A model generated the notes under the pieces. The model ran no database searches, was not told where the DNA came from, and was given only the letters and a program-made list of their open reading frames with translations. 64,000 nt of DNA, from the NCBI GenBank assembly GCA_947626085.1, contig CANQQU010000005.1, positions 3,342 through 67,341 of the forward strand. The letters run 5' to 3'. The position numbers were made by a program, and so were the translations under genes. This DNA comes from an uncultured Oscillospiraceae bacterium (GTDB taxonomy: Bacteria; Bacillota; Clostridia; Oscillospirales; Oscillospiraceae). Positions 16,171 to 50,651 of the stretch are shown here, piece after piece (positions within the stretch are counted from its first letter, which is position 1; the number at the start of each line of letters is the position of its first letter).

Positions 16171-16196
16171 GCCCCCGGGAAGTCCGGGGGCAAAGC

Positions 16197-16260
16197 TTGT
16201 GCGGCAGGAAGGAAAGGTTGTGCGGTTTTCCTTTCTTTGTATCGGCGCGGGTGCTAAAAT
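16197..16260 (+). promoter_or_regulatory. Box A: direct repeats TTGTGCGG (16197-16204, 16218-16225), then TAAAAT -10 at 16255-16260 with upstream TG
   Basis: The repeats are exactly 21 bp apart. A 29-nt gap separates the proximal repeat from the -10. The -35 is poor. The box lies upstream of GH78. Confidence 0.6.
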
Positions 16261-16291
16261 AACAATGGAAAAAAAGAAGGAGGAGAACCCT

Positions 16292-18785: not shown

Positions 18786-20135
18786 TTAGGCGGGTTTTTG
18801 GGCAGGGAAGTGGATACTCAGGAAGAACATATCCTCCTGCACCGCTGTCTCCACCGTGCCGCCATACTGGGCGGCGATGTATTGGATGCTCTTGATGCCG
18901 AAGCCGTGGCGGGCCTGATCGGGCTTGGTGGTGTCCAGGGCGTCCCGGTCCGTATGGAGTACCCCGTCAAAATAGTTGGAGGTCTCGATCTCCAGGCCGC
19001 CGCCGGTGCTTTGCAGCGTCAGGGTGATGACCTTTTTCTCCTGGTCCGGCAGCTTCTGTACCGCCTCCACGGCGTTGTCGATCAGGTTGCCGAAGATGGT
19101 GTAGGTCTGCACCGGGGTAAGGAAGGAGAAGGGCGCCCCGCTGCCCATGCAGGTGAACTGGATGCCGTTTTTCTGGCACAGCAGGGATTTTTCGCACAGC
19201 ACCACGTCCAGTACCTCGTTGCCGGTCTTAATATTGGCGTCATAGAAGGTGATTGCCTCCTGGAGCTGGTCCAGCTCCTCCTGGTTCAGCTTGCCTTCGA
19301 TCCGGCGGAAGATGTGCTTTAAGTCGTGGCACTTCATATTGATGGCGTCCATGCTGGCCTTCACCGACTGGAACTGGGCCTGGTCCTGTTTCCAGAGCTG
19401 CTGCAGCACCTCCATCTGGTGGTCCTGCTCGTTCTGATGGAACACAAAGCCGCACAAAAACAGGATCATGGCGTTGATATCAATGCTGAAGGCCTTGATG
19501 AGCATACTCACCGCCATGCTCTCCGACTCATAGACCCGGCCCAGGCAGATCAGCACATTCACGGTGATCACCATGAAGACCGAAAGCAGCGCCACGTTCC
19601 GTTCCGTCCGCTTATTCCGGACCACCTTTCCCTTGGGGCGGAAGAAATAGGCCAGCAGCAGGAAGGCGGCGATCCGAAAGACGTAAAACAGGACCCATTC
19701 CCATTCCTGGAGGGTGGTGTAGTCCGGGTGGATCAGGGAAATGGTGAGCTTGTCGTTGATCCCCAGCAGGTTCTGAATGAGCGGATAGAGCTTGTTCACC
19801 ACCTGATAGGTGGCGGTACCGGCGCAGACCACCAGCAGCACGCCCTCCAAATTGTCCTGGAAGCAGCCGTAGGTGAAGACCAGGCAGTATGCGGTCACCG
19901 CCAGGTAGCACAGCACCCGAATCCAGATGGCAGGGTAGTTAAAGTAGATCACGCCCAGGCCGTAGCTCATTACGATCCCCAGGATCCACATCAGCCCGAT
20001 CCGCAGGAAGAAGTGCCGCCGCCGTCCTAAGTGCCGGGCAAACAGGGCGATGCACAGCTGGGTCTCCAGAAAGGTCATGATCAGGGAAAAGGAGTCGAAA
20101 ACCGAGGGCCCCAGCAGGGTGAAAATCTTATCCAT
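18786..20135 (-). CDS. AgrC-like (HPK10-type) membrane sensor histidine kinase
   Basis: The start is MDKIFTLLG (an 8-nt overlap with the regulator stop). The N-terminal region of about 200 aa has multiple TM segments. The H-box is CHDLKHIF, the N-box GNLIDNAVEA and the G-box GFGIKSI. Confidence 0.8.
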   Translation of the reverse strand: MDKIFTLLGPSVFDSFSLIMTFLETQLCIALFARHLGRRRHFFLRIGLMWILGIVMSYGLGVIYFNYPAIWIRVLCYLAVTAYCLVFTYGCFQDNLEGVLLVVCAGTATYQVVNKLYPLIQNLLGINDKLTISLIHPDYTTLQEWEWVLFYVFRIAAFLLLAYFFRPKGKVVRNKRTERNVALLSVFMVITVNVLICLGRVYESESMAVSMLIKAFSIDINAMILFLCGFVFHQNEQDHQMEVLQQLWKQDQAQFQSVKASMDAINMKCHDLKHIFRRIEGKLNQEELDQLQEAITFYDANIKTGNEVLDVVLCEKSLLCQKNGIQFTCMGSGAPFSFLTPVQTYTIFGNLIDNAVEAVQKLPDQEKKVITLTLQSTGGGLEIETSNYFDGVLHTDRDALDTTKPDQARHGFGIKSIQYIAAQYGGTVETAVQEDMFFLSIHFPAQKPA

Positions 20136-20847
20136 ATTTTTTACTCCCTGAAAATTCCTCGAACCGGCGGGTAAATTCGTTCTTCCGGGGGTGGCTGATC
20201 TGCAGCTCCGTGTCCCCCACAAAGACGCTCATGCCCGCGATCCGGGTCACATGGGCCAGATTGACCAGCAGGAAATTGTTGCACCGGGCAAAGCCGCAGG
20301 GCTCCAGCAGGGCCTCCACGCTTTTCATGGTCTGGTACTGCCGGAACTCGCCGGAGGCGGTGTGGTAGACGCAGTGGTGGGCTCGGACCTCTACATAGGA
20401 GATCTGCCGGGAGAAGAGCCGGACCACCCCGGTTTCCGTCTTGACCAGGATATCTACGCTGCTGGGCTTCCGGGACTGGAGCCGCTGGAAGGAGCGGGTG
20501 AATTTCAGCTTAAATTCCGGGTACCGGATCGGCTTGACGATGAAATCCGCCGCCTCCACCTCATAGCCGTGGATGGCGTACTGCTGCATACTGGTGACGA
20601 AGATCAGCATCACCTGCCCGTCCTTCTCCCGGAGGATTCGGGAGGCGTCCAGGCCGTTCATCAGGGGCATCAAAATGTCCATGAACACGATGTCCCACTC
20701 GGCGGTGTACCGCTCCAGGAAGGGCACGGCGTTGTAAAAAATGGAAATGTCAAAGGGCAGCTTGTACTCGGCGGCATACTGCCGCAGGGCCGCCTCCAGC
20801 TGGGCGGCGGCGTCCTTACTGTCCTCCACGATGGCGATTTTATACAA
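20128..20847 (-). CDS. LytTR-family response regulator
   Basis: A TTG start follows the RBS GGGGGA. The receiver has DIVFMDILMP, and the C-terminal LytTR domain contains ...ISYVEVRAHHCVYHT... Confidence 0.85.
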   Translation of the reverse strand: MYKIAIVEDSKDAAAQLEAALRQYAAEYKLPFDISIFYNAVPFLERYTAEWDIVFMDILMPLMNGLDASRILREKDGQVMLIFVTSMQQYAIHGYEVEAADFIVKPIRYPEFKLKFTRSFQRLQSRKPSSVDILVKTETGVVRLFSRQISYVEVRAHHCVYHTASGEFRQYQTMKSVEALLEPCGFARCNNFLLVNLAHVTRIAGMSVFVGDTELQISHPRKNEFTRRFEEFSGSKKYG

Positions 20848-20907: not shown

Positions 20908-20932
20908 TTCACCGACTGAGAAAAAAGTAAAT

Positions 20933-20996
20933 TTGTGCGGTGGGAGAGCAAGGTTGTGCGGTTTTCCTTGTATTGCGGTTGGCGGGGGAGTATGCT
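20933..20996 (+). promoter_or_regulatory. Box B: direct repeats TTGTGCGG (20933-20940, 20954-20961), then TATGCT -10 at 20991-20996
   Basis: It has the same 21-bp phasing and 29-nt gap as box A. It is divergent from the regulator promoter and lies upstream of the lipoprotein-GH3 operon. Confidence 0.6.
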
Positions 20997-21050: not shown

Positions 21051-21668
21051 ATGAAAAAGACTATCAGCCTTCTGCTCACCGCCTGTCTGGTGGTTTGCCT
21101 GCTCTGCGCCTGCGACAGCGGCAGCTCCGCCGGCGGCAAGATCACCGGGATCTACCTGTCCCCGGCGAACCTGTCCTACCAGAATATGCGCCCCCAGTAC
21201 AACTACTATCTCACCACCTTCACCCAGCAGGAGCTGACCCTGATGGACGACAACACCTACTGCCTGGTGATCTCCGCCTCCACCTTCTCCGCTCTGGAGC
21301 TGGCCGAAAGCACCAACGATGCCAAGGGCAACGAGCGGGAGAACTACATCACCAAGATCTACGGTACTTACACCAGCGCCGTCAATGACCTGGACGAGGA
21401 TCTGCTGGATGTGACCCTGTCCGCCCCCACCCGGGTGGTCAAGAGCTACGACCAGACCTATTGGCTGGACACCGACGCCTGGACCGACAACATGGGCAAG
21501 CTGGTAGTGCCGCCCACCGGCTATGACGACAACGGCCAGCCCATCCGGGACGAGAACGCCACTCCCTGGACCGCTCAGCAGTATCTGGAGAGCGTCACCC
21601 TGACGACCACCACCATTCAGGTCAACCAGAAAACCGCCAGCTTCGACTTTACCGACTTCGGCGTGTAA
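21051..21668 (+). CDS. Lipoprotein of unknown function (205 aa)
   Basis: The RBS is AAGGAGG. The start MKKTISLLLTACLVVCLLCAC carries a lipobox. No family recognised. Confidence 0.7.
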   Translation: MKKTISLLLTACLVVCLLCACDSGSSAGGKITGIYLSPANLSYQNMRPQYNYYLTTFTQQELTLMDDNTYCLVISASTFSALELAESTNDAKGNERENYITKIYGTYTSAVNDLDEDLLDVTLSAPTRVVKSYDQTYWLDTDAWTDNMGKLVVPPTGYDDNGQPIRDENATPWTAQQYLESVTLTTTTIQVNQKTASFDFTDFGV

Positions 21669-21692
21669 GCCTCTGCCTTTGGAGGAATCGCC

Positions 21693-24584
21693 ATGGGAAA
21701 GAGTAATCTATGGCGGGGCATGACGGCGCTTTTGGCGCTGATCGTGTGCCTGACCAGCTTCGGCACCAGCCTGGCCTTCACCCGGGAGGGAGATGTGAAC
21801 CTGTTTTTGGGCACGCTGCCCCCGGCGGCGGCGGTGACGGACGACACCAATTACTATAAGTCCAGCTACGCCAGCATGGACGAGATGCGCCAGGCCCAGC
21901 AGGACTACCTGATCGAGAGTCAGATCGAAGGCTCCGTGCTGCTGCGCAACGAGAACGCCGCCCTGCCCCTGGCCAAGGATGCGGCCGTCACCCTCTTCGG
22001 CTTTGCAGCCGCCACCCCCGTGTATCATGGCGGCTCCGGCGGCCCCCCCAACACCGGCATCAACCTCTACGACGCCCTCAAGGCCGAAGGCGTCCGGGTC
22101 AACGACACGGTGTACAACGCCATTGTGAACACCCCCTCCGACCGGACCAAGACCGGTCTGATCGGGGAGATCCCCGCCTCCGCCTACGCCGGCACCGAGA
22201 GCTCCTACGCCTCCGACTACAATGACGCGGCCATTTACGTCATGAGCCGGTTCGGCGGCGAGGAAGGCGACCTGAACCACGGTCTCCAGGGCGACTGGCA
22301 GGAGGGCCCGGCGGACATCCCCGAGCTCAAGCTCCATCCGGAGGAGCTTGACACCCTGAACCTTATCAAGAATTCCGGCAAATTCGACAAGATCATTGTG
22401 GTTCTGAACTCCGGCTACGCCATGGAGCTCCAAGAGCTGATCGACCTGGGGGTGGACGCCATCCTCTGGATCGGCTATCCCGGCAACTACGGCATGACCG
22501 GCGTGGCAAAGATCCTCAACGGCCAGGCAGACCCTTCCGGCCGGAACGTGATCACCTATGCCGCCGATTCCCTGTCCAGCGCCGCGATGCAGAACGCCGG
22601 AGACTTCACCTTCACCAACCTGACGGGCCTTTACAAGAACAAGTACCTGGTCTACGCCGAGGGCATCTATGTGGGCTACAAGTACTATGAGACCCGGTAT
22701 CAGGATGAGATCCTGGGCCTGCACAACGCGACCTCGGAGAAGGGCGTCTACGCCTCCCAGAACGGGGCCTGGAACTATGCCGACGAGATGGTTTACACCT
22801 TCGGCGCGGGCCAAAGCTACGCAAGCTTCACCCAGGAGCTTCTCAGCGTCAACTGGGACAAGACCGCGCACACCCTCACCGCTCAGGTGAAGGTCACCAA
22901 CAACGGCGGCTTTGATGGCAAGTCCATGGATGTGGTCCAGCTCTATGTCCAGCTCCCCTGGCAGGAGGGACAGACGGAAAAGAGCGCCATCCAGCTCGTG
23001 GACTTTGCCAAGACCGGCCCCCTGGCCTCCGGTGAGAGCGAGACCGTGACGCTGGAGGTCTCCGACTATCTGTTCGCCGCCTATGACGCGAACGCCGTCA
23101 ACGGCGCGGATGGGACCAAGCAGGGCTGCTACGTCTTCGACGCTGGGGATTACTACTTCGCCATCGGCAGCGACGCCCACGACGCCCTGAACAATGTCCT
23201 GGCGGCCCAAGGGGTCACCGGCATGTATGACGCCGAGGGGAATCCAGTCTCCGGCGACAAGGCCAAGGTGGTCAAGGACACCCTAGCGGCCCTGGACAAC
23301 ACGACCTATGCCGTGTCCCAGCGCACCGGCGCGGTGGTTTCCAACCACTTCGAGGACCGGGACATCAACTATTTCCTCCCCGGCACCGTTACCTACCTGA
23401 CCAGGGCGGATTGGAACACCTTCCCCGACACGGTGGCCACCCTCACCGCCAACGAGGAGATCACCGACCTGATGGAGAACTTCCAGTACGAAAAACCCAG
23501 CGACGCCCCGGATATCTCTGCCTATAAGTATAAGCAGGAGAACGGCATCAGCTTCATTGACATGAAGGACGTGCCCTTCGACGATCCCATGTGGGACGAC
23601 TTCATCGATCAGCTCACCGTCACGGAGCTGGCCCAGATCACCGGCGACAAGATGGGCCTGGACAAGATCGAATCCATCGATATGCCCAGCTATGCCGGCG
23701 GCGACGGCCCCGACGGCCACCAGGCCGGCACCCTGTTCAACGCGGAAATGCTGGCGGCCTCCACCTTCAGCAAAGAGATGCTCCGGCTCCGCGGTGACTT
23801 CCTGGCGGAGGAGAGCTACTACATCGGCTTCCGGCAGATCTACGCCCCCGGCGGCAACATCCACCGCACGCCCTACTCCGGTCGGAACTTTGAGTACTAC
23901 TCCGAAGATTCTATCATGAGCTACCTGTGCGGCGAGGTCCAGACCCTGGCCATGGCCCAGAAGGGGTGCGTGGGCACCTTCAAGCACTTCTGCGGCAACG
24001 ATCAGGAGACCAACCGCCACGGCGTGGCCACCTTCATGACTGAGCAGACCTACCGGGAAGGACCCTTGAAGGGCTTCGAGGGCGGCCTGCAGGCCGGCCA
24101 CTCCATGGCCACCATGACGGCATATAACCGGATCGGCTGCATCCCCACCGCCTCCGACTATGCCACCATGACCACCGTCCTGCGGGAGGAGTGGGGCTTC
24201 ACCGGCATCAACATGACGGACTCCTCCAAGGACTCCGCCTCCTACATGGGCACGGCCGACGCCATCACCGCCGGGACCAACCAGTTCAACAACGACCCGG
24301 GCCGGGTGCCCGAGGTGTCCAACCTGCTGACCAAGGACCGGGACGGCTTCATCTGGGGCAAGCTCCGGCAGGTAGCTAAGTATTACCTGTACACCATGAG
24401 CCGGTCCAACCTGGTGAACGGCCTGGCCAAGGAGGTCCCCGTGGCGGACTACACGCCCTGGTGGAAGCCGGCAATGCTGGCTCTGGACGGGGTGCTGGGC
24501 GTCCTCACCGCTGCCAGCCTGGTGCTGTTCCTGGTAAACACCTATGGAAAAAAGAGGAGGAAAAACGATGAAAAATCTGCTTAA
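21693..24584 (+). CDS. Glycoside hydrolase family 3, permuted domain order, N-terminal signal-anchor and C-terminal TM anchor
   Basis: The GH3 C-domain text (VLLRNENAALPL...VGYKYYETRY) and an Fn3-like segment (VVQLYVQLP) precede the GH3 catalytic barrel. The barrel shows HRTPYSGRNFEYYSEDS, KHFCGNDQE and the nucleophile motif GFTGINMTDS. The C-terminal hydrophobic helix is followed by KKRRKNDEKSA. Confidence 0.85.
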   Translation: MGKSNLWRGMTALLALIVCLTSFGTSLAFTREGDVNLFLGTLPPAAAVTDDTNYYKSSYASMDEMRQAQQDYLIESQIEGSVLLRNENAALPLAKDAAVTLFGFAAATPVYHGGSGGPPNTGINLYDALKAEGVRVNDTVYNAIVNTPSDRTKTGLIGEIPASAYAGTESSYASDYNDAAIYVMSRFGGEEGDLNHGLQGDWQEGPADIPELKLHPEELDTLNLIKNSGKFDKIIVVLNSGYAMELQELIDLGVDAILWIGYPGNYGMTGVAKILNGQADPSGRNVITYAADSLSSAAMQNAGDFTFTNLTGLYKNKYLVYAEGIYVGYKYYETRYQDEILGLHNATSEKGVYASQNGAWNYADEMVYTFGAGQSYASFTQELLSVNWDKTAHTLTAQVKVTNNGGFDGKSMDVVQLYVQLPWQEGQTEKSAIQLVDFAKTGPLASGESETVTLEVSDYLFAAYDANAVNGADGTKQGCYVFDAGDYYFAIGSDAHDALNNVLAAQGVTGMYDAEGNPVSGDKAKVVKDTLAALDNTTYAVSQRTGAVVSNHFEDRDINYFLPGTVTYLTRADWNTFPDTVATLTANEEITDLMENFQYEKPSDAPDISAYKYKQENGISFIDMKDVPFDDPMWDDFIDQLTVTELAQITGDKMGLDKIESIDMPSYAGGDGPDGHQAGTLFNAEMLAASTFSKEMLRLRGDFLAEESYYIGFRQIYAPGGNIHRTPYSGRNFEYYSEDSIMSYLCGEVQTLAMAQKGCVGTFKHFCGNDQETNRHGVATFMTEQTYREGPLKGFEGGLQAGHSMATMTAYNRIGCIPTASDYATMTTVLREEWGFTGINMTDSSKDSASYMGTADAITAGTNQFNNDPGRVPEVSNLLTKDRDGFIWGKLRQVAKYYLYTMSRSNLVNGLAKEVPVADYTPWWKPAMLALDGVLGVLTAASLVLFLVNTYGKKRRKNDEKSA

Positions 24585-24975
24585 AGACAGACGCTTCGGA
24601 TTTTACCTCTCCGCCGGCAGCGCCGCTGCCGCCGTCATTGGCGCGGTGGTGTATGTGATCGTGTACATGGTCACCGCCGGGCAGACTGTGGACCGGGTCT
24701 TCGACTGGATGACCTTCGGCTTTGCCCTGGGCGGCGGCCTGGTGGGCCTGGCCTGTGAGATCTTCCGCCTCCGCTTCGGACCCATCCTGGCGACGTGCTG
24801 CCTGAGTGTGGGACTGGCCATTCACCTGGTGGAGTCGGCCTACCCCCTGGCGGATGTACTCACCGGCGTACCCTTCTTCGGGGGCAATTTCACCCTAGCC
24901 CTCATTTTCGCGGTCGTGTTTGGCCTGGCTACCCTTGTACAGGTGGCCGCGGCCTTCATGGAACACAATAAATAA
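24568..24975 (+). CDS. Small 4-TM membrane protein of unknown function
   Basis: The RBS is GAGGAGG. It overlaps the GH3 3' end by 17 nt and has four hydrophobic segments. Confidence 0.6.
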   Translation: MKNLLKDRRFGFYLSAGSAAAAVIGAVVYVIVYMVTAGQTVDRVFDWMTFGFALGGGLVGLACEIFRLRFGPILATCCLSVGLAIHLVESAYPLADVLTGVPFFGGNFTLALIFAVVFGLATLVQVAAAFMEHNK

Positions 24976-24994
24976 GAATTGGAGGAAAATCACA

Positions 24995-26350
24995 ATGAAA
25001 CTGCGTAAACTCCTGGCTCTGGTCCTGGCGGCCGTGATGCTCATGGGCATCTTGGCGGCCTGCGGCCCCACCGAAAACACCGACGGCACCAAGGAAAACA
25101 CCAACGGAAACACCAACGGTACCGAGGCCCCCGCTTCCAACAAGTCCTATCAGCTCTACGGCAAGTACGAGGAGGAGGGCGAGTTCGCCTCCATGATGAA
25201 CATGGCCTTCCTGCTGGATCTGAACGCCGACGGCACCGCCGTTTGCGACCGGTACTCCTTCGGCCAGTACGACGCCTCTCCCGCCGATTCCAACCCCTCC
25301 TACACCCAGAGCTACCTGTCCGGTACCTGGAAGGAAGTGGAAAAGGACGGCGTGCCCTGCCTGCAGATCAAGATCGCCTATGTGGACGAGGCGGGCAACG
25401 AGTCCAACAACCAGACCGCCTACGCCTACGAGGTGGCCGGTACCTACAGCTTTGAAATGACCTTCCCCGTGGTCCCCGGCATGTCCTACACCCGGAACGT
25501 GACCATGGAGGGCACGGAAAACAAGACCTACGCCACCGACGACGACTTCATCGCCGCCTACAAGATCGAGTTTACCGCTCCTGAGAACATCGGCTCCTTC
25601 GTGGACGCCGAGAACAACGGCACCGCTTATCTGCAGGCTGACGGCACCCTGCTGCTCTACGCCGGTTATGATAAGTTTGCTGACGGCAAGTGGACCAAGA
25701 CCGACGACGCCATCACCATTTCCGTGGGCGGCGAGGCCGTGGAAGTGACCATGGATGGCAATAAGGCCTCCTTCTCCTACAGCCGCAGCCTGGATGGCTC
25801 CAACACGGTGGATTACACCTTCGTCTGCGAGGACATCACCGCCATCGCCGCGCCCGAAGTGGGCGAGGACACCCCCTACACCGCTTCCGTTGACATGGGT
25901 GGCAACGAGACCACCGCGGAGCTGACTTTGGCTTCCGACGGCACCGCCAACCTGAAGGTCTTCACCGACATCCCCTGCACCTACACCCAGGTGGGCAGCG
26001 TGGTCATTCTGGAGGCTGCCGGGGAGCTGGAAGGCTACGCCGCTCAGATTTGGCCCGGCGTCAGCCATGCCTACATCCTCAACGAGGACCGGAGCATGGT
26101 GGGCGTGGTCAACGCCTATGAGGCCGGCGATCTGGTGCTGATCCTCCTGGACGAGACCAACATGAAGGTCTGCTTCCCCTCCTACGGGATGGAGCGGGAC
26201 GGCTTCACCTACACCCTCAGCGAGGACGGCACCGCGCTGACCGTCACCGCTCCCAGTGAGGAAGAGCTGGGCGCCTTTGCCCAGATCTGGGCCGGCGTCG
26301 GCGCTGAGAACTGGACCATCGACGGCAACACCGCTACCAAGGCGGAGTAA
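24995..26350 (+). CDS. Lipoprotein of unknown function (451 aa)
   Basis: The RBS is GGAGGA. The start MKLRKLLALVLAAVMLMGILAAC carries a lipobox, and an Asn/Thr/Gly linker follows. No family recognised. Confidence 0.7.
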   Translation: MKLRKLLALVLAAVMLMGILAACGPTENTDGTKENTNGNTNGTEAPASNKSYQLYGKYEEEGEFASMMNMAFLLDLNADGTAVCDRYSFGQYDASPADSNPSYTQSYLSGTWKEVEKDGVPCLQIKIAYVDEAGNESNNQTAYAYEVAGTYSFEMTFPVVPGMSYTRNVTMEGTENKTYATDDDFIAAYKIEFTAPENIGSFVDAENNGTAYLQADGTLLLYAGYDKFADGKWTKTDDAITISVGGEAVEVTMDGNKASFSYSRSLDGSNTVDYTFVCEDITAIAAPEVGEDTPYTASVDMGGNETTAELTLASDGTANLKVFTDIPCTYTQVGSVVILEAAGELEGYAAQIWPGVSHAYILNEDRSMVGVVNAYEAGDLVLILLDETNMKVCFPSYGMERDGFTYTLSEDGTALTVTAPSEEELGAFAQIWAGVGAENWTIDGNTATKAE

Positions 26351-26367
26351 TTCAGAAACTCATTCAC

Positions 26368-26393
26368 AAGGCCCCGGCAACCGCCGGGGCCTT
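26368..26393 (+). terminator. Stem-loop AAGGCCCCGGC-AACC-GCCGGGGCCTT (weak T-tract)
   Basis: A perfect 11-bp stem lies directly after the lipoprotein gene. Confidence 0.45.
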
Positions 26394-26419
26394 GCCATTC
26401 CAAACAGGAGATTCAGAAA

Positions 26420-27418
26420 ATGAAAAGAATTAAGTGGATCGCGCCACTGATTTTGGCGGCGCTCCTTCTGACCGCCTGCGCCGGCGGCGGGCAGGAGCCT
26501 CCCACGACCACCGCCGGGCAGGTGGTCAAGCTGATCGTGGACCAGAGCCCAGATCAGGTGGCCTATGTGGAAGGGGAGACCTTCGACCCTGCCGGAACGG
26601 TGATCAACGCCCAGCTGTCCGACGGCTCGATCCTGGAGGACGTGCCCTATACCGTCACGGTGGACACCCCCCTGACCCGGACTACGCTGTATGCCGAATT
26701 TGCCTACGGCGGCAAGACGGTGAGCATCCAGCTTCGGATCACTCTGGCGGGCAACGGCCCGGAATATACCTGTGAGAATACCCCCTTTGTCCCCGGCAGC
26801 CCTCTGGAGGGCAAGGTCATTTACTTCCTGGGCTCCTCCGTCACCTTGGGTGCCTATTCCGGGAATGAATCCATGGCGGACTACCTTGCCAAGAAGGATG
26901 GGGCTGTGTGCATCAAGGAAGCCGTGTCCGGCACCACCTTGGGGGATTTTAAGGACGGCAGTTATGTGGAGCGGCTGAATGCGTACCTGGCCTCTCCGGA
27001 CCGGGCGGAAAAGCTGGACGCCTTTGTGGTTCAGCTCTCCACCAACGACCGGAAATCCCCCAACCGCTACGGAGCTGTAACCGGCCCGGAGGTGCGGGAC
27101 CCGTCGGCCTTTGACATCACCACCTCCTTTGGCGCCATGGAGTATATCATTGCCACCGTCCGGCAGACCTGGGCTTGCCCGGTCTTCTTCTACACCAACC
27201 CGCCCCTGGACGAGGACTATGCAAAATTAGTGGAGGGCCTGGCTCAGATCGCGGAAAAGTGGAAGATCGGTGTGATCGATCTGTACCATGACCAAGCCTT
27301 CAACGACCTGACGGAGGAGGAATACGCCCTGTACATGGCCGACGAGGTCCATCCCACCAAGGCTGGCTACCGGGACTGGTGGCTACCGAAATTTGAGGAG
27401 GCACTGGCGGGGATCTGA
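26420..27418 (+). CDS. Lipoprotein with Ig-like domain and SGNH/GDSL-type hydrolase (carbohydrate esterase) domain
   Basis: The lipobox is LLTAC. Block I is FLGSSVTLG and block V is DEVHPT. Confidence 0.75.
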   Translation: MKRIKWIAPLILAALLLTACAGGGQEPPTTTAGQVVKLIVDQSPDQVAYVEGETFDPAGTVINAQLSDGSILEDVPYTVTVDTPLTRTTLYAEFAYGGKTVSIQLRITLAGNGPEYTCENTPFVPGSPLEGKVIYFLGSSVTLGAYSGNESMADYLAKKDGAVCIKEAVSGTTLGDFKDGSYVERLNAYLASPDRAEKLDAFVVQLSTNDRKSPNRYGAVTGPEVRDPSAFDITTSFGAMEYIIATVRQTWACPVFFYTNPPLDEDYAKLVEGLAQIAEKWKIGVIDLYHDQAFNDLTEEEYALYMADEVHPTKAGYRDWWLPKFEEALAGI

Positions 27419-27436
27419 GACAGCCCACCGTGAAAT

Positions 27437-27500
27437 CTGTGCCGCCGGATGGCAAGGTTGTGCGGTTTTGGTTGCATCACACGGCGGCAAATTGTACATT
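27437..27500 (+). promoter_or_regulatory. Box C: CTGTGCCG (27437-27444) and TTGTGCGG (27458-27465), then TACATT at 27495-27500
   Basis: It has the same 21-bp phasing and 29-nt gap. It lies upstream of the second GH3. Confidence 0.6.
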
Positions 27501-27536
27501 GTGTATGTTAAGACTACTAAAGGGAGGAAAACCGAT

Positions 27537-30500
27537 ATGAGCAAGAACCCTAAGAAAAAAGGCACGCTGTGGGCGGTCCTCACCGCAGCGCTGGCGGTTT
27601 TTCTGGCAGTTCTCATCGCGGCAATCCCGGTGACGGCCTATTATGAGACCATGATCAACGCCGCCCTGAATGCACGGACCCAGAAAATCATCCCCGGGGA
27701 GGATTCCAGCATCTTCTATTGGACGGAGTATGAGACAGAGGAAGCCCTGACGGAAAATGATTTTGATATTTGCCGTCAGGTGATGGCGGAGGGGGCGGTG
27801 CTCCTGCTCAATCGGGATCAGACCCTGCCTCTGCCTGCGGAAACAAAATTCTCCCTCTTTTCCCAGTCCGCGGCGGACCCGGTGCTCACCGGCACTGGCT
27901 CGGCTTTCATGGCCACCGGCGACGCCGTGAGCTTTTACGGAGCCCTGGAGGACAGCTTCGCTCCCGGCTGCGTCAACCAGGAGGTGTGGAAATTCTACAA
28001 GACCTCCGGCTATAAGCGGGTCAACGCGGATCTGGCTGGCGGCGGCCCGGAGCAGTACCGGATCAACGAGGTGCCCTGGGAGAAATACCCCGAGGCGGTT
28101 AAGGCCACTTTCTCCGATTTTGGGGATGTGGCGCTGGTGGTGCTGTCCCGCTCCTCAGGAGAGGGGGCGGACCTTCCCAGCGGTCTGCCCGAGCTGGAGG
28201 AGTATATGACGGACGGCGACTACCTCCGGCTCTGCCCGGAGGAGGAGGAACTGCTGGAAAACCTGCGGCAGCTCAAGGAGGACGGTGTATTCCGCCGGAT
28301 CGTGGTGCTGCTGAACTCCTCCAGCACCCTGCAGCTGGATTTTCTGGACAAATATGAGATCGATGCCCTGCTGTGGGTGGGCAATTTGGGGCTGAACGGC
28401 ATTCCAGCGGTGGCGGACATCCTGGCGGGGAAGGTCAATCCCTCCGGCCGGATCGTGGATACCTTCCAGAAGGACAACCACGCCGCCCCCGCCATGCAGA
28501 ACTATGATGCCTTTCCCTACACCAACGCAGAGGAGCTGGGCCTGGAGTTCGCCCAGAACAACAACGCCCCCGGGATCGAAAAGTGCAACCGGAATTATGT
28601 GGTCTACCAGGAAGGCATTTATGTGGGCTACCGCTATTTTGAGACCCGGTATGAAGACTACGTTTTGAACCAGGGCAATCCGGGGGACTACCGCTATGAC
28701 GAGCTGGTGGCCTTCCCCTTTGGCTGCGGCTTGAGCTATACCACCTTTGAATATTCCAATTTTGCCATCTCCGACCTGGGCGACGCCATCCGGGCGGAGG
28801 TGGACGTGACCAACACCGGCAGCGTAGACGGAAGCCACACAGTGCAGATTTATTTCCAGTCCCCCTACACCCAGTATGACCGGGAAAACGGGGTGGAGAA
28901 GTCCGCCGTGGAGCTGTGTGGCTTCGACAAGAAGCTGATACCCGCCGGGGCCACAGAGCATTTTTCCATCGAGATTGCCAAGGACGATCTGACCAGCTAT
29001 GATGCCAACAACGCCAGGACCTACATCCTGGACGCGGGAGACTACTATTTTACCGTGGGGACCGACGCCCACGACGCCGTCAACAACATCCTCACCGCCA
29101 AAGGTGCGGACCCCTCCCGCATGAGCGGCACGGGGAACGCCTCCCTCGCCGCCAAGTGGACCCTGGATGCCCTGGACAACACAACCTATGCCGTTTCCGC
29201 CTACACCGGCGTGGCGGTCACTAACCGCTTCGACGATGCGGACCTGAACAAGTACGAGGGGGCGGAGGGCCAGACCGTCACCTATTTGACCCGTTCCGAC
29301 TGGACTGGCACCTTCCCCAGTCCCCAGATCCTGTATGTGACGGATCAGATGTGGGCGGACGGCCTGACCCACAACGAGGACGAGCGGGCCGCCATCGCGG
29401 AAAAGATGAAGGCGCTCTACTGGTCCGACGCCGCCCTGGCTCCCAGCGGCGTGGCCGGGGACGGGAAGGCCATCGATTTTGTGGAGACGTCCTATGATAA
29501 CCCCGCCTGGGACGGCCTCATCAGCCAGATCCCCTATGGTGATATGCTGGACACCATCTACAACGGTGCTTACAACACCCACGCCCAGCCCGCCATCAAC
29601 CTGCCGGGGACCTCGGAATCCGACGGCCCCACCGGCTACACCAAGAGTCTGATGGGCGGTGCCAGCGGCATGGCTTTCCCCTCCGAGGACGTTTTGGCCG
29701 CCTCCTTTGACCGGGAGCTTGCCAAGCTGGTGGGCAAGTGCATGGGGGAGGATATGCTCCACAGCAACCAAAACAGCGGGGAAACCACCATGGCGGGCAT
29801 CTACGCCCCCGGCGCCAACATCCACCGGAGCCAGTATCTGGGCCGCCATAACGAGTATTATTCCGAGGACGGCTGGCTCTCCGGCGAGATCTGCGCCGCC
29901 CAGGTCCAGGGGATCCGGGACCGGGGGATGCTTGCCTTTGTGAAGCACTATGCCCTCAACGATCAGGAGGAGGGCCGATACGGCATCAGCGTCTGGGCCA
30001 ACGAGCAGGCCATCCGGGAACTCTACCTGGAGTCCTTTGAAGGTGCGATTCGGGGCGGTGCCATGAACGTGATGACCAGCTTCAACCGAATCGGCGTGGT
30101 CTGGTCCGGCAGTCACTATGGCCTGATGACCGGCATCCTCCGGGATGAGTGGGGGATGCAGGGAGCCGCCGTCACGGATATGTCCATGAATGCCAAGTGG
30201 ATGGATTACCGCCTTGGCATCCTGGCAGGCCAGGACCTCTGGTGCGGCCAGAAGGGGACTATGGGCACCCTGGACGGCAGTGAGAACGATCCCGCCATCA
30301 CCAGCGCGGTCCACCGGGCTATGAAAAACATCGTCTATTCCGTCACCCGCACCAACGCAATGAACGTAGGCGATGCCACCGTCATTGCAGTGACGCCGGA
30401 GTGGAAAATCGTCCTGTATGCCGCCACGGCGGTCACCGCCGTACTGACCGCCTTGTGCGCCGGCTTGTGGATTCTCCGCCGGTGGGCCGGAAAACAGTAG
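27537..30500 (+). CDS. Glycoside hydrolase family 3, permuted, doubly membrane-anchored (paralog 2)
   Basis: The start is MSKNPKKKGTLWAVLTAALAVFL (signal anchor). It carries KHYALNDQEEGR and the nucleophile motif GMQGAAVTDMS. The C-terminal TM helix is followed by RRWAGKQ. Confidence 0.85.
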   Translation: MSKNPKKKGTLWAVLTAALAVFLAVLIAAIPVTAYYETMINAALNARTQKIIPGEDSSIFYWTEYETEEALTENDFDICRQVMAEGAVLLLNRDQTLPLPAETKFSLFSQSAADPVLTGTGSAFMATGDAVSFYGALEDSFAPGCVNQEVWKFYKTSGYKRVNADLAGGGPEQYRINEVPWEKYPEAVKATFSDFGDVALVVLSRSSGEGADLPSGLPELEEYMTDGDYLRLCPEEEELLENLRQLKEDGVFRRIVVLLNSSSTLQLDFLDKYEIDALLWVGNLGLNGIPAVADILAGKVNPSGRIVDTFQKDNHAAPAMQNYDAFPYTNAEELGLEFAQNNNAPGIEKCNRNYVVYQEGIYVGYRYFETRYEDYVLNQGNPGDYRYDELVAFPFGCGLSYTTFEYSNFAISDLGDAIRAEVDVTNTGSVDGSHTVQIYFQSPYTQYDRENGVEKSAVELCGFDKKLIPAGATEHFSIEIAKDDLTSYDANNARTYILDAGDYYFTVGTDAHDAVNNILTAKGADPSRMSGTGNASLAAKWTLDALDNTTYAVSAYTGVAVTNRFDDADLNKYEGAEGQTVTYLTRSDWTGTFPSPQILYVTDQMWADGLTHNEDERAAIAEKMKALYWSDAALAPSGVAGDGKAIDFVETSYDNPAWDGLISQIPYGDMLDTIYNGAYNTHAQPAINLPGTSESDGPTGYTKSLMGGASGMAFPSEDVLAASFDRELAKLVGKCMGEDMLHSNQNSGETTMAGIYAPGANIHRSQYLGRHNEYYSEDGWLSGEICAAQVQGIRDRGMLAFVKHYALNDQEEGRYGISVWANEQAIRELYLESFEGAIRGGAMNVMTSFNRIGVVWSGSHYGLMTGILRDEWGMQGAAVTDMSMNAKWMDYRLGILAGQDLWCGQKGTMGTLDGSENDPAITSAVHRAMKNIVYSVTRTNAMNVGDATVIAVTPEWKIVLYAATAVTAVLTALCAGLWILRRWAGKQ

Positions 30501-30551
30501 ATTTCAGCGCCGGGCTTTGGCCCGGCGCCTTTCCGCAGCCCAACATGAAAT

Positions 30552-30615
30552 CTGTGCCGCCGGATGGCAAGGTTGTGCGGTTTTGGTTGCATCACGCGGG
30601 GAAAAATTGTACATT
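30552..30615 (+). promoter_or_regulatory. Box D: CTGTGCCG (30552-30559) and TTGTGCGG (30573-30580), then TACATT at 30610-30615
   Basis: It is a near-identical copy of box C and lies upstream of the third GH3. Confidence 0.6.
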
Positions 30616-30651
30616 GTGTATGCTAAGACTACCAAAGGGAGGAAAACCGAT

Positions 30652-33621
30652 ATGAGCAAAAACCCCAAGAAAAAAGGCACGCTTTGGGCGGTCCTCACCG
30701 CCGTCACCGCCGTGCTGCTGATCATTTCCATTGTGGCGATCCCCATCACCAACTTTTTCTCCACCGCCATCAACGTGGCCCTGGGGGCCGTGACCCAGAA
30801 GGTGGTCCCCGACCCCGACGCAAAGATCTACTTCTGGTCCAACTACGACAGCGAGGAGGATCTGGTGGCTTTCGAGAAGCAGCTCTGCCGGGACATCGAG
30901 GGCGAGGGCGCGGCCCTGCTCGTGAACCGGGACAACACCCTGCCCCTTCCAGAAGGGACCAAGTTCACCCCCTTCTCCCAGTCCTCCTTTAACCTCCTCT
31001 ACGGCGGCACCGGCTCCGGCCAGGTCTCCGCCGATGACGCGGTCTCCCTGAAATCCGCCCTGGAGGAGTCCTTCGGCGAGAATACGGTGAACCTGGACCA
31101 GTGGAAATTCTACGCCACCTGCGGCTATGCCCGGGTCAATGCGGACACCACCGGCGGCAACCAGGCCCAGTACCGGATCAACGAGGTGCCCTGGGAGAAG
31201 TACACCGACGCCCTGCAGAGTACCTGGAGCGACTACGGCGACGTGGCCCTGGTGGTCCTGGCCCGGTCCGGCGGCGAGGGCGCGGATTTGCCCAGCGGCC
31301 TGCCGGAGCTGGAAGAGTACATGACGGATGGCGACTATCTCCGCCTGAACCGGGACGAACTGGATATGTTCGAGCATCTGGAGCAGCTGAAGAACGAGGG
31401 CGTCTTTAAGAAGATCGTGGTGCTGCTCAACTCCTCCAACACCCTGCAGCTGGACTTCGTGGACGACTATGGCATCGACGCGGTGCTGTGGATCGGCGAT
31501 GTGGGCATGACCGGTATCAACGCTGTCGCGGATATTTTGGCGGGCAAGATCAATCCCTCCGGCCGGATCGTAGACACCTTCCTGAAGGACAACCACTCCA
31601 GCCCCGCTATGCAGAATTTCGGCGCGTTCCCCTATACTAACGGAGCGGACTACAATGTGGCCACTGCCCAGAACAACACCGACCCTGGCATCAACAAGTG
31701 CAACCGGGACTATGTGGTCTACGCCGAGGGCATCTATGTGGGCTATCGGTACTATGAGACTCGTTATGAGGACTTTGTGCTGAATCAGGGCAACGCCGGG
31801 GACTATGACTATGACTCCGATGTAGCCTTCCCCTTCGGCTTTGGTCTGAGCTACACTGATTTCGCCTACTCTAATTTTAAAGTGGAGGATCAGGGCCAGA
31901 CCTTCCAGGTGGAGGTGGATGTGACCAACACCGGCGCGGTGGACGGCAAGCACACGGTGCAGATCTACTTCCAATCCCCCTACACCCAGTACGATATTGA
32001 CAACCAAGTGGAGAAAGCCGCCGTGGAGCTGTGCGGCTTCGACAAGAAGATGATCCCCGCCGGGGAAACCGAGCATTTCACCATCACGGTCAACAAGGAA
32101 GACCTGACTTCCTACGACCATATGAATGCCAAGACCTACATCTTGGACGCCGGGGACTACTACTTCACCGTGGGCAAGAATGCGCATGACGCGGTAAACA
32201 ACATCCTGATGGCCAAGGGCGCGGACGCGAGCCGCATGAGCGGTACCGGAGACGCCTCTCTGACCTACAAGTGGACTCTGGACGCTCTGGACAGCACCAC
32301 CTATGCGGTTTCCAGCAAGACCGGCAAGCCCATTACGAACCTCTTTGAAAACGCGGACCTGAACAAGTATGAGGGCGCCCAGGGCCAGACGGTCACTTAT
32401 CTGACCCGTTCCGACTGGACCGGCACCTTCCCCCAGACAGTGACCCTTTCCATCACCGACCAGATGTGGGCCGACGGCCTGACCCATGAGGAGGCAGGCA
32501 GGGTCGCCATCGTGGAGAAAATGAAGAGCCAGTATTATCCCGACGCTACCATGCCCGCCATGGGTGTGTCCGGCAGTCTCACCGCCGGCCAGTTTGCCGA
32601 GAAAGCAGCCGATGATCCGGATTGGGACCAGCTCATTGCCCAGATCCCTTATTCCGAGATGACCAACGTTATTTACAACGGCTTCCATCTGACCCAGCCG
32701 GTGCCCTCCATCGGTCTGCCCGGCACCAACGATGAAAACGGACCCCAGGGCTTCACCAAGAGCCTGGTGGGCGGTTCCTCCGCCATGGCCTACACCTCCG
32801 AGGATGTGATGGCCGCCACCTACAACCGGGAGCTCATTGAGAACATGGGCAAGTGCATCGGCGAGGACTTCCTCCACGCCACCGACGGCTCCGGCACCGT
32901 GTTCTCCGGCATCTATGGCCCCGGCGCCAACATCCACCGCACGCCTTACTCCGGCCGGAACTTTGAGTACTACTCCGAGGACGGCTGGCTGGCCGGGCAG
33001 GTCGCCTCCGTGGAGGTGGCCGCCATTCAGGACCGGGGCGTGTATGTGTTCACCAAGCACTTTGCCCTGAACGATCAGGAGGAAGGCCGCTACGGCATCT
33101 CCACCTGGTCTAACGAGCAGGCCATCCGGGAATTGTACCTGGAGGGTTTTGAAGGCAGCGTGAAGAACGGCGGCGGCATGGGCGTCATGAGCTCCTTCAA
33201 CCGGATCGGCGTCACCTGGTCCGGCGCGCACCACGGCCTGATGACCGGCATCCTCCGGGATGAATGGGGCATGACCGGCGCGGCCATCACCGACTGCTCC
33301 GTCATGGCCAATTACATGGACTACCGTATGGGCGTCCTGGCCGGCCAGGATCTTTGGGACGGCTATAGCAGCGGCATGGCCACTCTGGACGGCCTGGACA
33401 GTGATCCCGCCATCGTCACCGCGGTGCAGAACGCGGTGAAGCACATCACCTATTCCATCAGCCACAGCCACGCCATGAATGTGGGCAACGCCACCGTGGT
33501 GCTGGTAACGCCGGCATGGCAAATGGCCCTGTATATCCTGACGGGTGTGCTGGCAGTCCTCACCGCCGGATGCGCCGCGATGCTGGTGATCACCCGCCGG
33601 AAGGCCAAAAAGAACCAATAA
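30652..33621 (+). CDS. Glycoside hydrolase family 3, permuted, doubly membrane-anchored (paralog 3)
   Basis: It has the same architecture as paralog 2: MSKNPKKKGTLWAVLTAVTAVLL, KHFALNDQEEGR and GMTGAAITDCS. The C-terminal TM helix is followed by TRRKAKKNQ. Confidence 0.85.
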   Translation: MSKNPKKKGTLWAVLTAVTAVLLIISIVAIPITNFFSTAINVALGAVTQKVVPDPDAKIYFWSNYDSEEDLVAFEKQLCRDIEGEGAALLVNRDNTLPLPEGTKFTPFSQSSFNLLYGGTGSGQVSADDAVSLKSALEESFGENTVNLDQWKFYATCGYARVNADTTGGNQAQYRINEVPWEKYTDALQSTWSDYGDVALVVLARSGGEGADLPSGLPELEEYMTDGDYLRLNRDELDMFEHLEQLKNEGVFKKIVVLLNSSNTLQLDFVDDYGIDAVLWIGDVGMTGINAVADILAGKINPSGRIVDTFLKDNHSSPAMQNFGAFPYTNGADYNVATAQNNTDPGINKCNRDYVVYAEGIYVGYRYYETRYEDFVLNQGNAGDYDYDSDVAFPFGFGLSYTDFAYSNFKVEDQGQTFQVEVDVTNTGAVDGKHTVQIYFQSPYTQYDIDNQVEKAAVELCGFDKKMIPAGETEHFTITVNKEDLTSYDHMNAKTYILDAGDYYFTVGKNAHDAVNNILMAKGADASRMSGTGDASLTYKWTLDALDSTTYAVSSKTGKPITNLFENADLNKYEGAQGQTVTYLTRSDWTGTFPQTVTLSITDQMWADGLTHEEAGRVAIVEKMKSQYYPDATMPAMGVSGSLTAGQFAEKAADDPDWDQLIAQIPYSEMTNVIYNGFHLTQPVPSIGLPGTNDENGPQGFTKSLVGGSSAMAYTSEDVMAATYNRELIENMGKCIGEDFLHATDGSGTVFSGIYGPGANIHRTPYSGRNFEYYSEDGWLAGQVASVEVAAIQDRGVYVFTKHFALNDQEEGRYGISTWSNEQAIRELYLEGFEGSVKNGGGMGVMSSFNRIGVTWSGAHHGLMTGILRDEWGMTGAAITDCSVMANYMDYRMGVLAGQDLWDGYSSGMATLDGLDSDPAIVTAVQNAVKHITYSISHSHAMNVGNATVVLVTPAWQMALYILTGVLAVLTAGCAAMLVITRRKAKKNQ

Positions 33622-33656: not shown

Positions 33657-33687
33657 GGGACCCGTCCATCGACGATGGGCGGGTCCC
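33657..33687 (+). terminator. Stem-loop GGGACCCGTCCATCG / CGATGGGCGGGTCCC
   Basis: A long GC-rich hairpin lies after the third GH3. Confidence 0.5.
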
Positions 33688-33719
33688 GCCCTATATTTGA
33701 ACAAAGGAGACAAATTTCG

Positions 33720-34565
33720 ATGATCAAAGCGGTCCAACAGTTTATGCTGGGAACGGTGACAGGCCGGGAAAAGCAGGCCCGGCAGACCCTGGAAGCCATG
33801 GCGGCGGCAGGGTATAATGGGATCGAGCTGTGCGGGTTTATGGTCCGCCCGGCTAATCTGGCGGTGCGGCTGCTGACCTCCGCCGCGGGAATGCCCGTGG
33901 GCGGCGGAGGCAAGCTGGACTGGGCGAAGCTGACCCGTGAGGCGAGCCTTCAGGTGGTGAGCCTTCACCAGGACCTGGACACGCTGGAGAAGGACCCTGA
34001 CGCGGTCCTTCAGCAGGCGGAGCGCTACGGCACCCAAACAGTGGTCATCACGGGAATGTACGGCTTTGACTATGGCAGCAGGGAGCAGGTGGAGCGCCTG
34101 GCGGACCGCCTTAACCGGGCGGGGAAGACCCTGGCGGAGCGGGGAGGGGAACTGCTGTACCACAACCACAACTGCGAGCTGCAAAAGCCCATCCCCGGCG
34201 TCACGGCCTATGAACTGCTGATGGACCGGCTGGATGAAAATTATGTAAACTTCGAGTTTGATTCCTACTGGTTTGCCGAGGGCGGCGCGGACCCCCTGGC
34301 CTGGATGGTCAAGCTGGGCAGCCGGATGAAGCTCTGGCACATCAACGACCGGGGCACCCGGCACACTGGCCCAGCCGTGACCCCCATCCTCAAGACCGAC
34401 AGTATGGAGCTGGGGGATGGCAATCTGGACCTGGATGCCCTGACCCGCCAGGCCAAGGCCGTCGGCATCCGGGCGGTGATTCTGGAGAGCCACCGCAACT
34501 GGGTGGACGGCTCTCCCGTCAAGAGCTTCCAGCGCAGCGCGCAATATTTGAACCGGCATTTTTAG
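33720..34565 (+). CDS. Sugar phosphate isomerase/epimerase (xylose-isomerase-like TIM barrel)
   Basis: The RBS is AAAGGAGA. The text MIKAVQQFMLGTV...GYNGIELCGFM...LWHINDRG... is typical of the AP-endonuclease-2/TIM family. Confidence 0.7.
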   Translation: MIKAVQQFMLGTVTGREKQARQTLEAMAAAGYNGIELCGFMVRPANLAVRLLTSAAGMPVGGGGKLDWAKLTREASLQVVSLHQDLDTLEKDPDAVLQQAERYGTQTVVITGMYGFDYGSREQVERLADRLNRAGKTLAERGGELLYHNHNCELQKPIPGVTAYELLMDRLDENYVNFEFDSYWFAEGGADPLAWMVKLGSRMKLWHINDRGTRHTGPAVTPILKTDSMELGDGNLDLDALTRQAKAVGIRAVILESHRNWVDGSPVKSFQRSAQYLNRHF

Positions 34566-38335: not shown

Positions 38336-38352
38336 ATTGGTGTCCCCCATTC

Positions 38353-43413: not shown

Positions 43414-43442
43414 TTGTATATTTCCCAAAAATGTGATACGAT
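43414..43442 (+). promoter_or_regulatory. Candidate promoter TTGTAT-17 nt-TACGAT for the structured RNA
   Basis: The spacing is exactly 17 nt. The predicted start near 43449 coincides with the 5' strand of the closing helix. Confidence 0.5.
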
Positions 43443-43447
43443 ATCTT

Positions 43448-44058: not shown

Positions 44059-44085
44059 TTAAACAATAAGGAGCGTTTCTTCCAA

Positions 44086-50380: not shown

Positions 50381-50386
50381 ACTACC

Positions 50387-50638: not shown

Positions 50639-50651
50639 GGGAGGGAGAAAA

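Follow-up and report, generated by a model that had tools for sequence, protein, structure and literature searches.

How does a gut bacterium control and use an array of surface glycosidases when no sugar importer is encoded within it? This question is raised by a 64,000-nucleotide (nt) stretch of DNA, referred to here as the window, from an uncultured Oscillospiraceae bacterium of the rabbit gut. Seven genes on the + strand of the window, at 21.0-33.6 kilobases (kb), encode three permuted enzymes of glycoside hydrolase family 3 (GH3), three lipoproteins, and a protein with four transmembrane (TM) segments. With moderate confidence, we read this array as part of a LytTR-controlled, membrane-proximal exo-glycosidase system of gut Clostridia, in which a neighboring two-component system is predicted to switch on the glycosidase genes and the GH3 enzymes are predicted to act at the outer face of the membrane. 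The open reading frames (ORFs) confirm the gene coordinates that an earlier note on this DNA had given for the array. The genes on which the argument turns are the following.

16265..18691, + strand: GH78-like (Bac_rhamnosid6H) lipoprotein, extracellular; Pfam Bac_rhamnosid6H (E = 2.9e-32) and Bac_rhamnosid_N, lipobox LLTAC
18786..20135, - strand: sensor histidine kinase, polytopic; Pfam HATPase_c_5 (E = 4.7e-21), AgrC-like class
20128..20847, - strand: response regulator with a LytTR DNA-binding domain; Pfam Response_reg and LytTR
21051..21668, + strand: lipo205, orphan lipoprotein, first gene of the operon
21693..24584, + strand: GH3_1, permuted GH3; N-terminus resembling a signal peptide, C-terminal TM helix followed by a basic tail
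24568..24975 (alternative upstream ATG at 24544), + strand: TM4, orphan four-TM protein
24995..26350, + strand: lipo451, orphan multi-domain all-beta lipoprotein
26420..27418, + strand: SGNH/GDSL esterase lipoprotein; Lipase_GDSL_2 (E = 2.6e-14)
27537..30500, + strand: GH3_2, permuted GH3; N-terminal hydrophobic helix of 22 residues, C-terminal TM helix followed by a basic tail
30652..33621, + strand: GH3_3, permuted GH3, 65% identical to GH3_2 and with the same two hydrophobic ends

The earlier note had found no LacI-, AraC- or GntR-type sugar regulator near the array, and indeed none is encoded among the sizeable ORFs at 11.5-37 kb. The locus nevertheless has a regulatory system: the histidine kinase and the LytTR response regulator, which the note did not mention, adjoin the array and belong to the same cassette in about 40 species. 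As judged by hydropathy, the kinase has about six to seven N-terminal hydrophobic helices and no large external domain. Both genes are transcribed divergently from lipo205 and are preceded by a near-consensus sigma-70 promoter (TTGACT-17-TATAAT; 20907-20879, - strand).

We scanned a genome collection with an alignment of lipo451 homologues, which yielded 41 loci, and mapped the proteins of the window onto these loci by BLAST. The core order of the cassette is kinase (reverse), regulator (reverse), lipo205, GH3_1, TM4, lipo451, GH3_3 and, often, GH3_2, and it recurs in Oscillospiraceae (Gemmiger formicilis and Pseudoflavonifractor capillosus among them), Lachnospiraceae and Bacilli, about 40 species in all. 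In metagenome-assembled genomes (MAGs) of rumen Bacilli, the two-component genes have moved downstream of the rest of the cassette. A TM4 homologue with 32% identity likewise sits behind a permuted GH3 gene, a lipo205-like gene and a kinase/LytTR pair. The SGNH lipoprotein gene is a variable member, since its position shifts, or the gene is absent, in related loci. Thus, the gene set is conserved as a unit, with synteny in 41 loci, and the lack of such conservation, which the earlier note had named as a refutation, does not apply.

A direct repeat, in which AAGGTTGTGCGGT occurs twice with a spacing of 21 bp from center to center, abuts the -35 element of four promoters in the window. The pattern TGTGC-N16-TGTGC has exactly four matches in the 64-kb window, all of them in the leaders of the GH78-like gene, lipo205, GH3_2 and GH3_3. 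The bit scores given below were obtained with a position weight matrix trained on sites from other species only.

16192..16235, + strand: predicted LytTR operator and promoter of the GH78-like gene; exact TGTGC-N16-TGTGC, 37.4 bits; two hairpins upstream, after the GH43 gene
20928..20971, + strand: predicted LytTR operator and -35 element of the lipo205 operon; divergent intergenic region, 38.5 bits
27432..27475, + strand: predicted LytTR operator and promoter of GH3_2; 20.9 bits
30547..30590, + strand: predicted LytTR operator and promoter of GH3_3; 20.9 bits

A scan of the whole window with this matrix recovers exactly these four leader sites; the next best site scores 10.9 bits, and the maximum in 20 shuffled sequences is 16.3 bits. 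An equivalent motif lies 105-150 nt 5' of lipo205 in 36 loci, and in relatives it is also found before the GH78-like gene, GH3_3 (loci L001, L006 and L042) or lipo451. The GH78-like gene, together with its own operator, is kept beside the cassette in L001, L047 and L048. Across species, the extended consensus is tAAGgtTGTGCGGt-N8-AAGGTTgTGCGGTt-N4-TTGa, which consists of two 13-bp repeats 21 bp apart that abut the -35 element. Tandem direct repeats with 21-bp spacing next to a -35 element are the architecture of AgrA- and ComE-type LytTR sites.

The leaders of GH3_2 and GH3_3 resemble one another over a tract of approximately 165 nt (~27425-27590 and ~30540-30705) that is about 95% identical and includes the operator, the promoter, the ribosome-binding site and the first 17 codons. 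The N-terminus of GH3_2 in relatives differs from that of the window copy. Given that the leaders are about 95% identical while the GH3_2 and GH3_3 proteins are 65% identical, it seems that GH3_2 of the window gained the promoter and 5' end of GH3_3 by gene conversion, downstream of the inserted SGNH gene. We also considered a riboswitch in this duplicated leader and rejected it, since no Rfam match is found in the locus and the operator, promoter and ribosome-binding site explain the sequence.

The domain order of the three GH3 enzymes can be read directly from Pfam coordinates. In all three proteins, Glyco_hydro_3_C (approximately residues 82-365) is followed by an Fn3-like domain (~413-510) and then by the Glyco_hydro_3 barrel (~677-892), and both PF00933 and PF01915 exceed their gathering cut-offs in each. 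The order of sandwich, Fn3 and barrel proposed in the earlier note is therefore confirmed for every member of the array. The note had described this order as documented for a minority of GH3 enzymes only; the permuted enzymes form an already described subfamily with crystal structures (PMC5104943; 5K6L and 5WUG). The PDB chains 5K6L and 5WUG give clear sequence matches (E about 1e-56), and their barrels lie at residues 523-710 and 563-748 of the respective chains. When GH3_2 is aligned to Thermotoga neapolitana Bgl3B (2X40), 'aavtD' falls opposite 'fvmsD' and 'ssgEg' opposite 'isgEg'. Likewise, the nucleophile Asp and the acid/base Glu can be seen by eye in the translations of GH3_1 (MTD and GEEG) and GH3_3 (ITD and GEG). 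GH3_1 shares 31-33% identity with GH3_2 and GH3_3. On the basis of these features, the three proteins are predicted to be catalytically intact, circularly permuted exo-glycosidases.

Kyte-Doolittle windows reveal one N-terminal and one C-terminal hydrophobic segment in each GH3 protein, with scores of 1.95-2.75, and none between them. Both segments and their basic tails are retained in 90 non-redundant orthologues of four paralogue types (GH3_1, GH3_1b, GH3_2 and GH3_3), in agreement with the hydrophobic helix and basic tail that the earlier note had seen at each end. Over these orthologues, the mean number of K+R relative to D+E is 3-4 to about 0 in the N-terminal tail and 4-4.7 to less than 1.3 in the C-terminal tail, and the external flanks are acidic, with a low mean K+R and a relatively high D+E. 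This distribution of charge is what the positive-inside rule would predict for an external catalytic domain, which supports the extracellular location that had been proposed. A juxtamembrane TPWW(K/Q) motif precedes the C-terminal helix in most paralogues; in the array, the corresponding C-termini read ...YTPWWKPA..., ...VTPEWKI... and ...VTPAWQM.... From these features we infer a topology in which the C-terminal segment acts as a stop-transfer anchor.

The N-termini are of two kinds. That of GH3_1 looks like a canonical n-h-c signal peptide, with Gly at -5 and an h-region of approximately 14 residues, as long as those of the four lipoproteins of the locus, and in GH3_1-type orthologues the Ala at -1 is invariant in 'LA↓F/Y', so the earlier proposal that all three enzymes are tethered by both ends fits GH3_1 poorly and GH3_2 and GH3_3, with their more anchor-like N-termini, better. 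In the latter two proteins, the h-region comprises 22-23 strongly hydrophobic residues, a length suited to a TM helix, and ends in Pro followed by small residues; such N-termini are ambiguous and could be signal anchors or long signal peptides of the Gram-positive kind. If all three enzymes kept both helices, each would form a hairpin with both termini in the cytoplasm. The positive-inside charge at both ends of every paralogue type agrees with this arrangement, as do the length and hydrophobicity of the GH3_2 and GH3_3 h-regions (Kyte-Doolittle 2.5-2.9), compared with the 13-17 residues found in the lipoprotein signal peptides of the locus, and the fair conservation of the N-terminal segment (pairwise identity of 0.65-0.72, compared with 0.78-0.82 for the whole protein). 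Double anchoring is also plausible because the permuted termini replace the canonical barrel-to-sandwich linker and should emerge close to one another in space, as the GH3 fold suggests (PMC5104943). We nevertheless regard a hairpin in all three enzymes as doubtful, given the canonical signal peptides of the GH3_1 type, the suitability of the Pro and small residues in GH3_2 and GH3_3 (PVTNA↓F and PVTA↓Y) for signal peptidase I, and the long h-regions that are common in Gram-positive signal peptides; moreover, the sole published GH3 enzyme with such a layout, SN243, was interpreted as having a signal peptide and a C-terminal anchor. The C-terminal segment could instead be a sorting signal, with TPWW[K/Q], the TM helix and the K/R tail being cleaved by a sortase-like enzyme and the GH3 enzymes becoming wall-linked or released. 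The tripartite layout does resemble LPXTG, PEP-CTERM and GlyGly-CTERM signals, and the TPWW motif is kept across paralogues of 31-33% identity. However, none of the GH3 orthologues has an LPXTG motif, the NCBIfam sorting-domain models gave no match, none of the 41 loci contains a sortase-like or protease gene, and Trp-rich juxtamembrane stretches are ordinary interfacial anchors, so that sorting is highly improbable and a stop-transfer anchor is the reading with which we proceed.

Searches of Pfam, NCBIfam and PDB sequences, using single sequences, every member of the alignments and relaxed E-values, gave no credible match and nothing but noise for TM4, lipo205 and lipo451, consistent with the earlier statement that none of these three proteins has a known family. 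TM4 homologues number 70 cluster representatives among 1.8 billion proteins. In 5.8 billion proteins, lipo205 has 309 homologues, none of them named, and lipo451 has 246.

The TM4 gene overlaps the stop codon of GH3_1 by 17-41 nt, depending on whether translation starts at 24568 or 24544, and is probably translationally coupled to GH3_1. TM4 has four hydrophobic segments, with both ends predicted to be inside, and its third loop, which is predicted to face outward, is strikingly conserved (HLVE[ST]AYPLADVLTGVPFFGGN). A TM4 gene lies behind GH3_1-type genes, including the GH3_1b/TM4b pairs, in 51 of 52 cases and behind GH3_2- or GH3_3-type genes in none of 58. Because this pairing is so strict, which is the strongest clue to its role, TM4 appears to be a dedicated membrane partner of GH3_1-type enzymes. 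Since the N-terminus of GH3_1 looks cleavable, TM4 may supply to GH3_1 a membrane partner such as GH3_2 and GH3_3 would have of their own. From its size, TM4 could be imagined to be an SMR- or SemiSWEET-like transporter, but it matches no such family and its strong positive-inside bias favors a fixed topology; we keep this idea only within the improbable uptake complex described below. In many related loci (L007, L021, L024, L029, L031-L036, L039 and L040), there is a second pair of paralogues in which GH3_1b (47-49% identical) is followed directly by TM4b (~30%), as at 17423-20750 of L007; this pair comes without a second set of lipoproteins and is absent from the window.

The AlphaFold2 model of lipo451, with a predicted local distance difference test score (pLDDT) of 74.5, is all-beta and made up of several modules of beta-meander or barrel type, with one short helix in each. 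The earlier note had allowed that the lipoproteins might turn out to be solute-binding proteins, yet neither matches a solute-binding protein family. They are not ordinary solute-binding proteins, as judged from the model for lipo451 and from the family searches for lipo205, whose own model is unreliable. The array lipoproteins carry the lipobox motifs LLCAC, LAAC and LTAC, and lipo205 and lipo451 are likely to be surface accessory proteins for ligand capture or for signalling to the kinase. At 6754-10723 of L028, a locus from the MAG that also contains L027, a distant GH3 gene (30% identity with GH3_2) and another kinase/LytTR pair (25-33% identity) precede a lipo451 paralogue; with this arrangement, the association of lipoprotein, GH3 and LytTR genes recurs in a diverged second copy.

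An alternative can be proposed by analogy, namely that lipo205, TM4 and perhaps also lipo451, rather than helping the enzymes, act as auxiliary sensor subunits that report on substrate or on GH3 occupancy to the kinase, as SaeP and SaeQ do for SaeS. The input domain of the kinase consists of membrane helices only, the lipoproteins and TM4 are found together with the kinase and regulator in distant lineages despite reordering (Bacilli, L041-L043), lipo205 always comes first behind the operator, and auxiliaries made up of a lipoprotein and a TM protein have precedent (PMC5083920, PMC3748130). The top fold match of lipo205, which is not significant, is the sensory partner ToxS (E = 0.27) and serves as a lead only. 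However, TM4 follows GH3_1-type genes rather than the kinase gene, the GH3_1b-TM4b pair occurs without a second kinase, the lipo451 paralogue of L028 adjoins a different GH3 gene and a different two-component system, and SaeP and SaeQ share no sequence or fold similarity with the orphan proteins, so we consider this alternative the less likely one. It is more improbable still that TM4, lipo205, lipo451 and the TM helices of the GH3 enzymes form a novel membrane complex that couples glycoside hydrolysis to signalling by the LytTR kinase or to sugar uptake; if true, coupling to uptake would explain a core cassette that has no conventional transporter in most genomes.

The earlier note had called the array transporter-less. 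This is true of the locus itself, in that no ATP-binding cassette (ABC), phosphotransferase system (PTS) or major facilitator superfamily (MFS) importer is encoded among the sizeable ORFs at 11.5-37 kb, but it is not true of the system, since relatives carry an MFS_2/GPH symporter gene within the locus (L047, L048, L010 and L019). In Gemmiger formicilis and one Lachnospiraceae genome, this gene lies between the GH3 and GH2 genes. Most loci show no MFS_2/GPH symporter within 10 kb. The genes that follow GH3_3 in the window are listed here.

33675-34565, + strand: sugar-phosphate isomerase-like TIM barrel (AP_endonuc_2), cytoplasmic; Pfam, no signal sequence
34578-36974, + strand: GH2, cytoplasmic; Pfam, no signal sequence
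37460-38350: LysR regulator, just past the 11.5-37 kb span

The isomerase-like TIM barrel and GH2 are variable downstream members of the cassette that are found in many related loci, and the large ORFs at 11.5-37 kb also include an FGGY kinase, a FucI-like isomerase and a GH43 enzyme. The polysaccharide-degrading enzymes of the locus are thus the three GH3 enzymes, the GH78-like protein, GH43, GH2 and the SGNH esterase. For the last of these, described earlier as an Ig-SGNH esterase lipoprotein, the Lipase_GDSL_2 part stands, while the N-terminal 'Ig' part corresponds to a sub-threshold Big_3 match (E = 0.0095). GH2, GH43 and the isomerases have no signal sequences; that GH2 and GH43 are cytoplasmic implies an import of glycosides through a transporter encoded elsewhere. 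The window's only sugar-type MFS gene, at 52609-53952 (+) and 19 kb downstream of the array, was considered as the missing importer and rejected, since it is not an orthologue of the GPH symporters of relatives and sits among unrelated genes; it is followed by a glycerophosphodiester phosphodiesterase-like ORF (53956-54762). At 58413-62379 (+) are ORFs that resemble beta-phosphoglucomutase, ROK kinase and GH65 maltose phosphorylase, in a context that appears unrelated to the array.

Taken together, the system that we favor would operate as follows. The polytopic kinase would phosphorylate the LytTR regulator, which would bind the tandem repeat abutting the -35 element and activate four units: the GH78-like gene; lipo205-GH3_1-TM4-lipo451(-SGNH); GH3_2; and GH3_3 with its downstream genes. 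After export, the GH3 enzymes would stay at the outer face of the cytoplasmic membrane, with the C-terminal stop-transfer helix and basic tail as their minimum anchor, and GH3_2 and GH3_3 may retain their long N-terminal helix as well. Because the membrane tethers are short, the enzymes would probably act by trimming plant glycosides or soluble oligosaccharides that reach them by diffusion across the wall. The released mono- and disaccharides would then be set free beside importers encoded elsewhere, or beside the in-locus GPH symporter of some relatives, and the cytoplasmic GH2, GH43, isomerases and a kinase would finish their catabolism. As for the substrate, a plant glycoside or arabinogalactan side chain is our guess, to which the GH78-like, GH43, GH2 and FucI-like neighbors, weak family scores and the enrichment of Gemmiger on arabinogalactan loosely point.

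Several observations weigh against this account. The scores of the best NCBIfam equivalogs of the GH3 enzymes (alpha-L-arabinopyranosidase, beta-glucosidase and xylosidase) fall far short of the cut-offs in every case. That the regulator binds the operator is proposed from position, conservation and architecture only, and the operator copies of GH3_2 and GH3_3, being one duplicated sequence, amount to a single independent observation. The sequence is present in rabbit-gut DNA metagenomes only and in no RNA run. Finally, Foldseek comparison of the lipo451 model with the PDB returned only beta-propeller-like matches with TM-scores of about 0.1, and the lipo205 model has a pLDDT of 51 and no fold match at E <= 0.001.

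The permuted GH3 subfamily to which the array enzymes belong has been linked to gut Firmicutes through GlyA1 (5K6L; PMC5104943) and BrGH3A (PMC11233000), and it also includes the Paenibacillus barengoltzii beta-glucosidase 5WUG. The array shares with this subfamily the order of (alpha/beta)6 sandwich, FnIII and (beta/alpha)8 barrel and the setting of gut or rumen Firmicutes that feed on plant material. The characterized members are soluble, however: BrGH3A lacks a signal peptide, the last domain of GlyA1 is lectin-like, and membrane anchors are unmentioned in PMC5104943 and PMC11233000. The array enzymes differ from them in having export or anchor segments at both ends, a fixed cassette, orphan partners and a LytTR system. 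A signal peptide and a C-terminal TM domain have also been reported for the metagenomic GH3 beta-glucuronidase SN243, which its authors took to be cell-surface-bound (bioRxiv 10.1101/2022.04.25.489410); unlike the array enzymes, it shows no sign of permutation in the text, in which neither 'permut' nor 'domain order' occurs, and no equivalent gene context is described for it.

A Gram-positive polysaccharide utilization locus (gpPUL) is defined by the presence of a degrading enzyme, a transporter and a regulator in one locus (Sheridan et al. 2016, PMC5320581); the regulators include LytTR-type proteins, and the GPH symporter is a common type of gpPUL transporter (PMC5320581). The locus of the window has both enzyme and regulator, with glycoside hydrolases and an esterase clustered with a transcriptional regulator, but falls outside the formal definition because it contains no transporter, and its accessory proteins belong to three unannotated families rather than being ABC binding proteins. 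With AgrCA, ComDE and BtsSR-type LytTR systems, the cassette has in common a polytopic HATPase_c_5 kinase, a LytTR regulator and tandem repeats with 21-bp spacing by the -35 element; it differs in having no peptide pheromone or AgrB-like genes and a predicted regulon of surface glycosidases. SaePQRS of Staphylococcus aureus (PMC5083920) likewise combines a lipoprotein and a small multi-pass protein with a two-component system that has an intramembrane-sensing kinase, but the analogy is one of layout only, there being no sequence similarity, and TM4 follows the GH3_1 gene rather than the kinase gene. A limited literature search turned up no description of the cassette, of the three orphan families or of a LytTR operator before glycosidase genes. 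Thus, the enzymes are new members of a known permuted GH3 subfamily, and the conserved cassette and the three orphan families appear to be undescribed.

Other features of the window lie outside the array. A full-length OLE (ornate large extremophilic) RNA is found at 43436-44069 (+) (Rfam RF01071, 429.6 bits, model positions 1-616), and 3' of it is a small membrane-protein ORF (44086-44679) that is OapA-like by translation. Beyond this ORF, up to approximately 50355, the translations read as dxs, a TlyA/RrmJ-like methyltransferase, NAD kinase, ArgR and RecN. A T-box leader at 50384-50612 (+) (RF00230, 102.3 bits) precedes a metallo-beta-lactamase-fold-like ORF (50637-51287) and a tyrosyl-tRNA synthetase-like ORF (51284-52507). 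At 4217-6953 (-) is a group II intron, recognized by its Rfam D1-D4 (RF02004, 168.6 bits) and D5/6 (RF00029) domains, which flank a 637-amino-acid reverse transcriptase/maturase/HNH-like ORF (4378-6291, -). Finally, at 8316-10704 (+), a leucine-rich-repeat protein of the BspA type is encoded together with an ORF that contains part of an AMP-binding domain; by translation, this ORF ends in leucine-rich-repeat-like sequence, which may reflect a fusion or disruption of the two genes.

Among the fermenters of fiber in animal and human guts, Oscillospiraceae and Lachnospiraceae are major and little-studied groups. Carbohydrate capture by Gram-positive bacteria is usually pictured in terms of secreted or wall-bound enzymes and ABC transporters, and the LytTR class of regulators is better known for peptide quorum sensing. 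The cassette is a new variant of the Gram-positive carbohydrate locus, and it is its regulatory logic and orphan partners, rather than the permutation or the missing transporter, that deserve pursuit. The 44-bp operator, the strict pairing of GH3_1 with TM4 and the existence of cultured carriers (Gemmiger formicilis and Pseudoflavonifractor) provide handles for testing the function of the orphan proteins and the signal to which the kinase responds. The cassette suggests another arrangement for carbohydrate capture, one of exo-glycosidases at the membrane surface, akin to the periplasmic GH3 enzymes of Gram-negative bacteria, that are switched by a LytTR system and served by three unannotated protein families.

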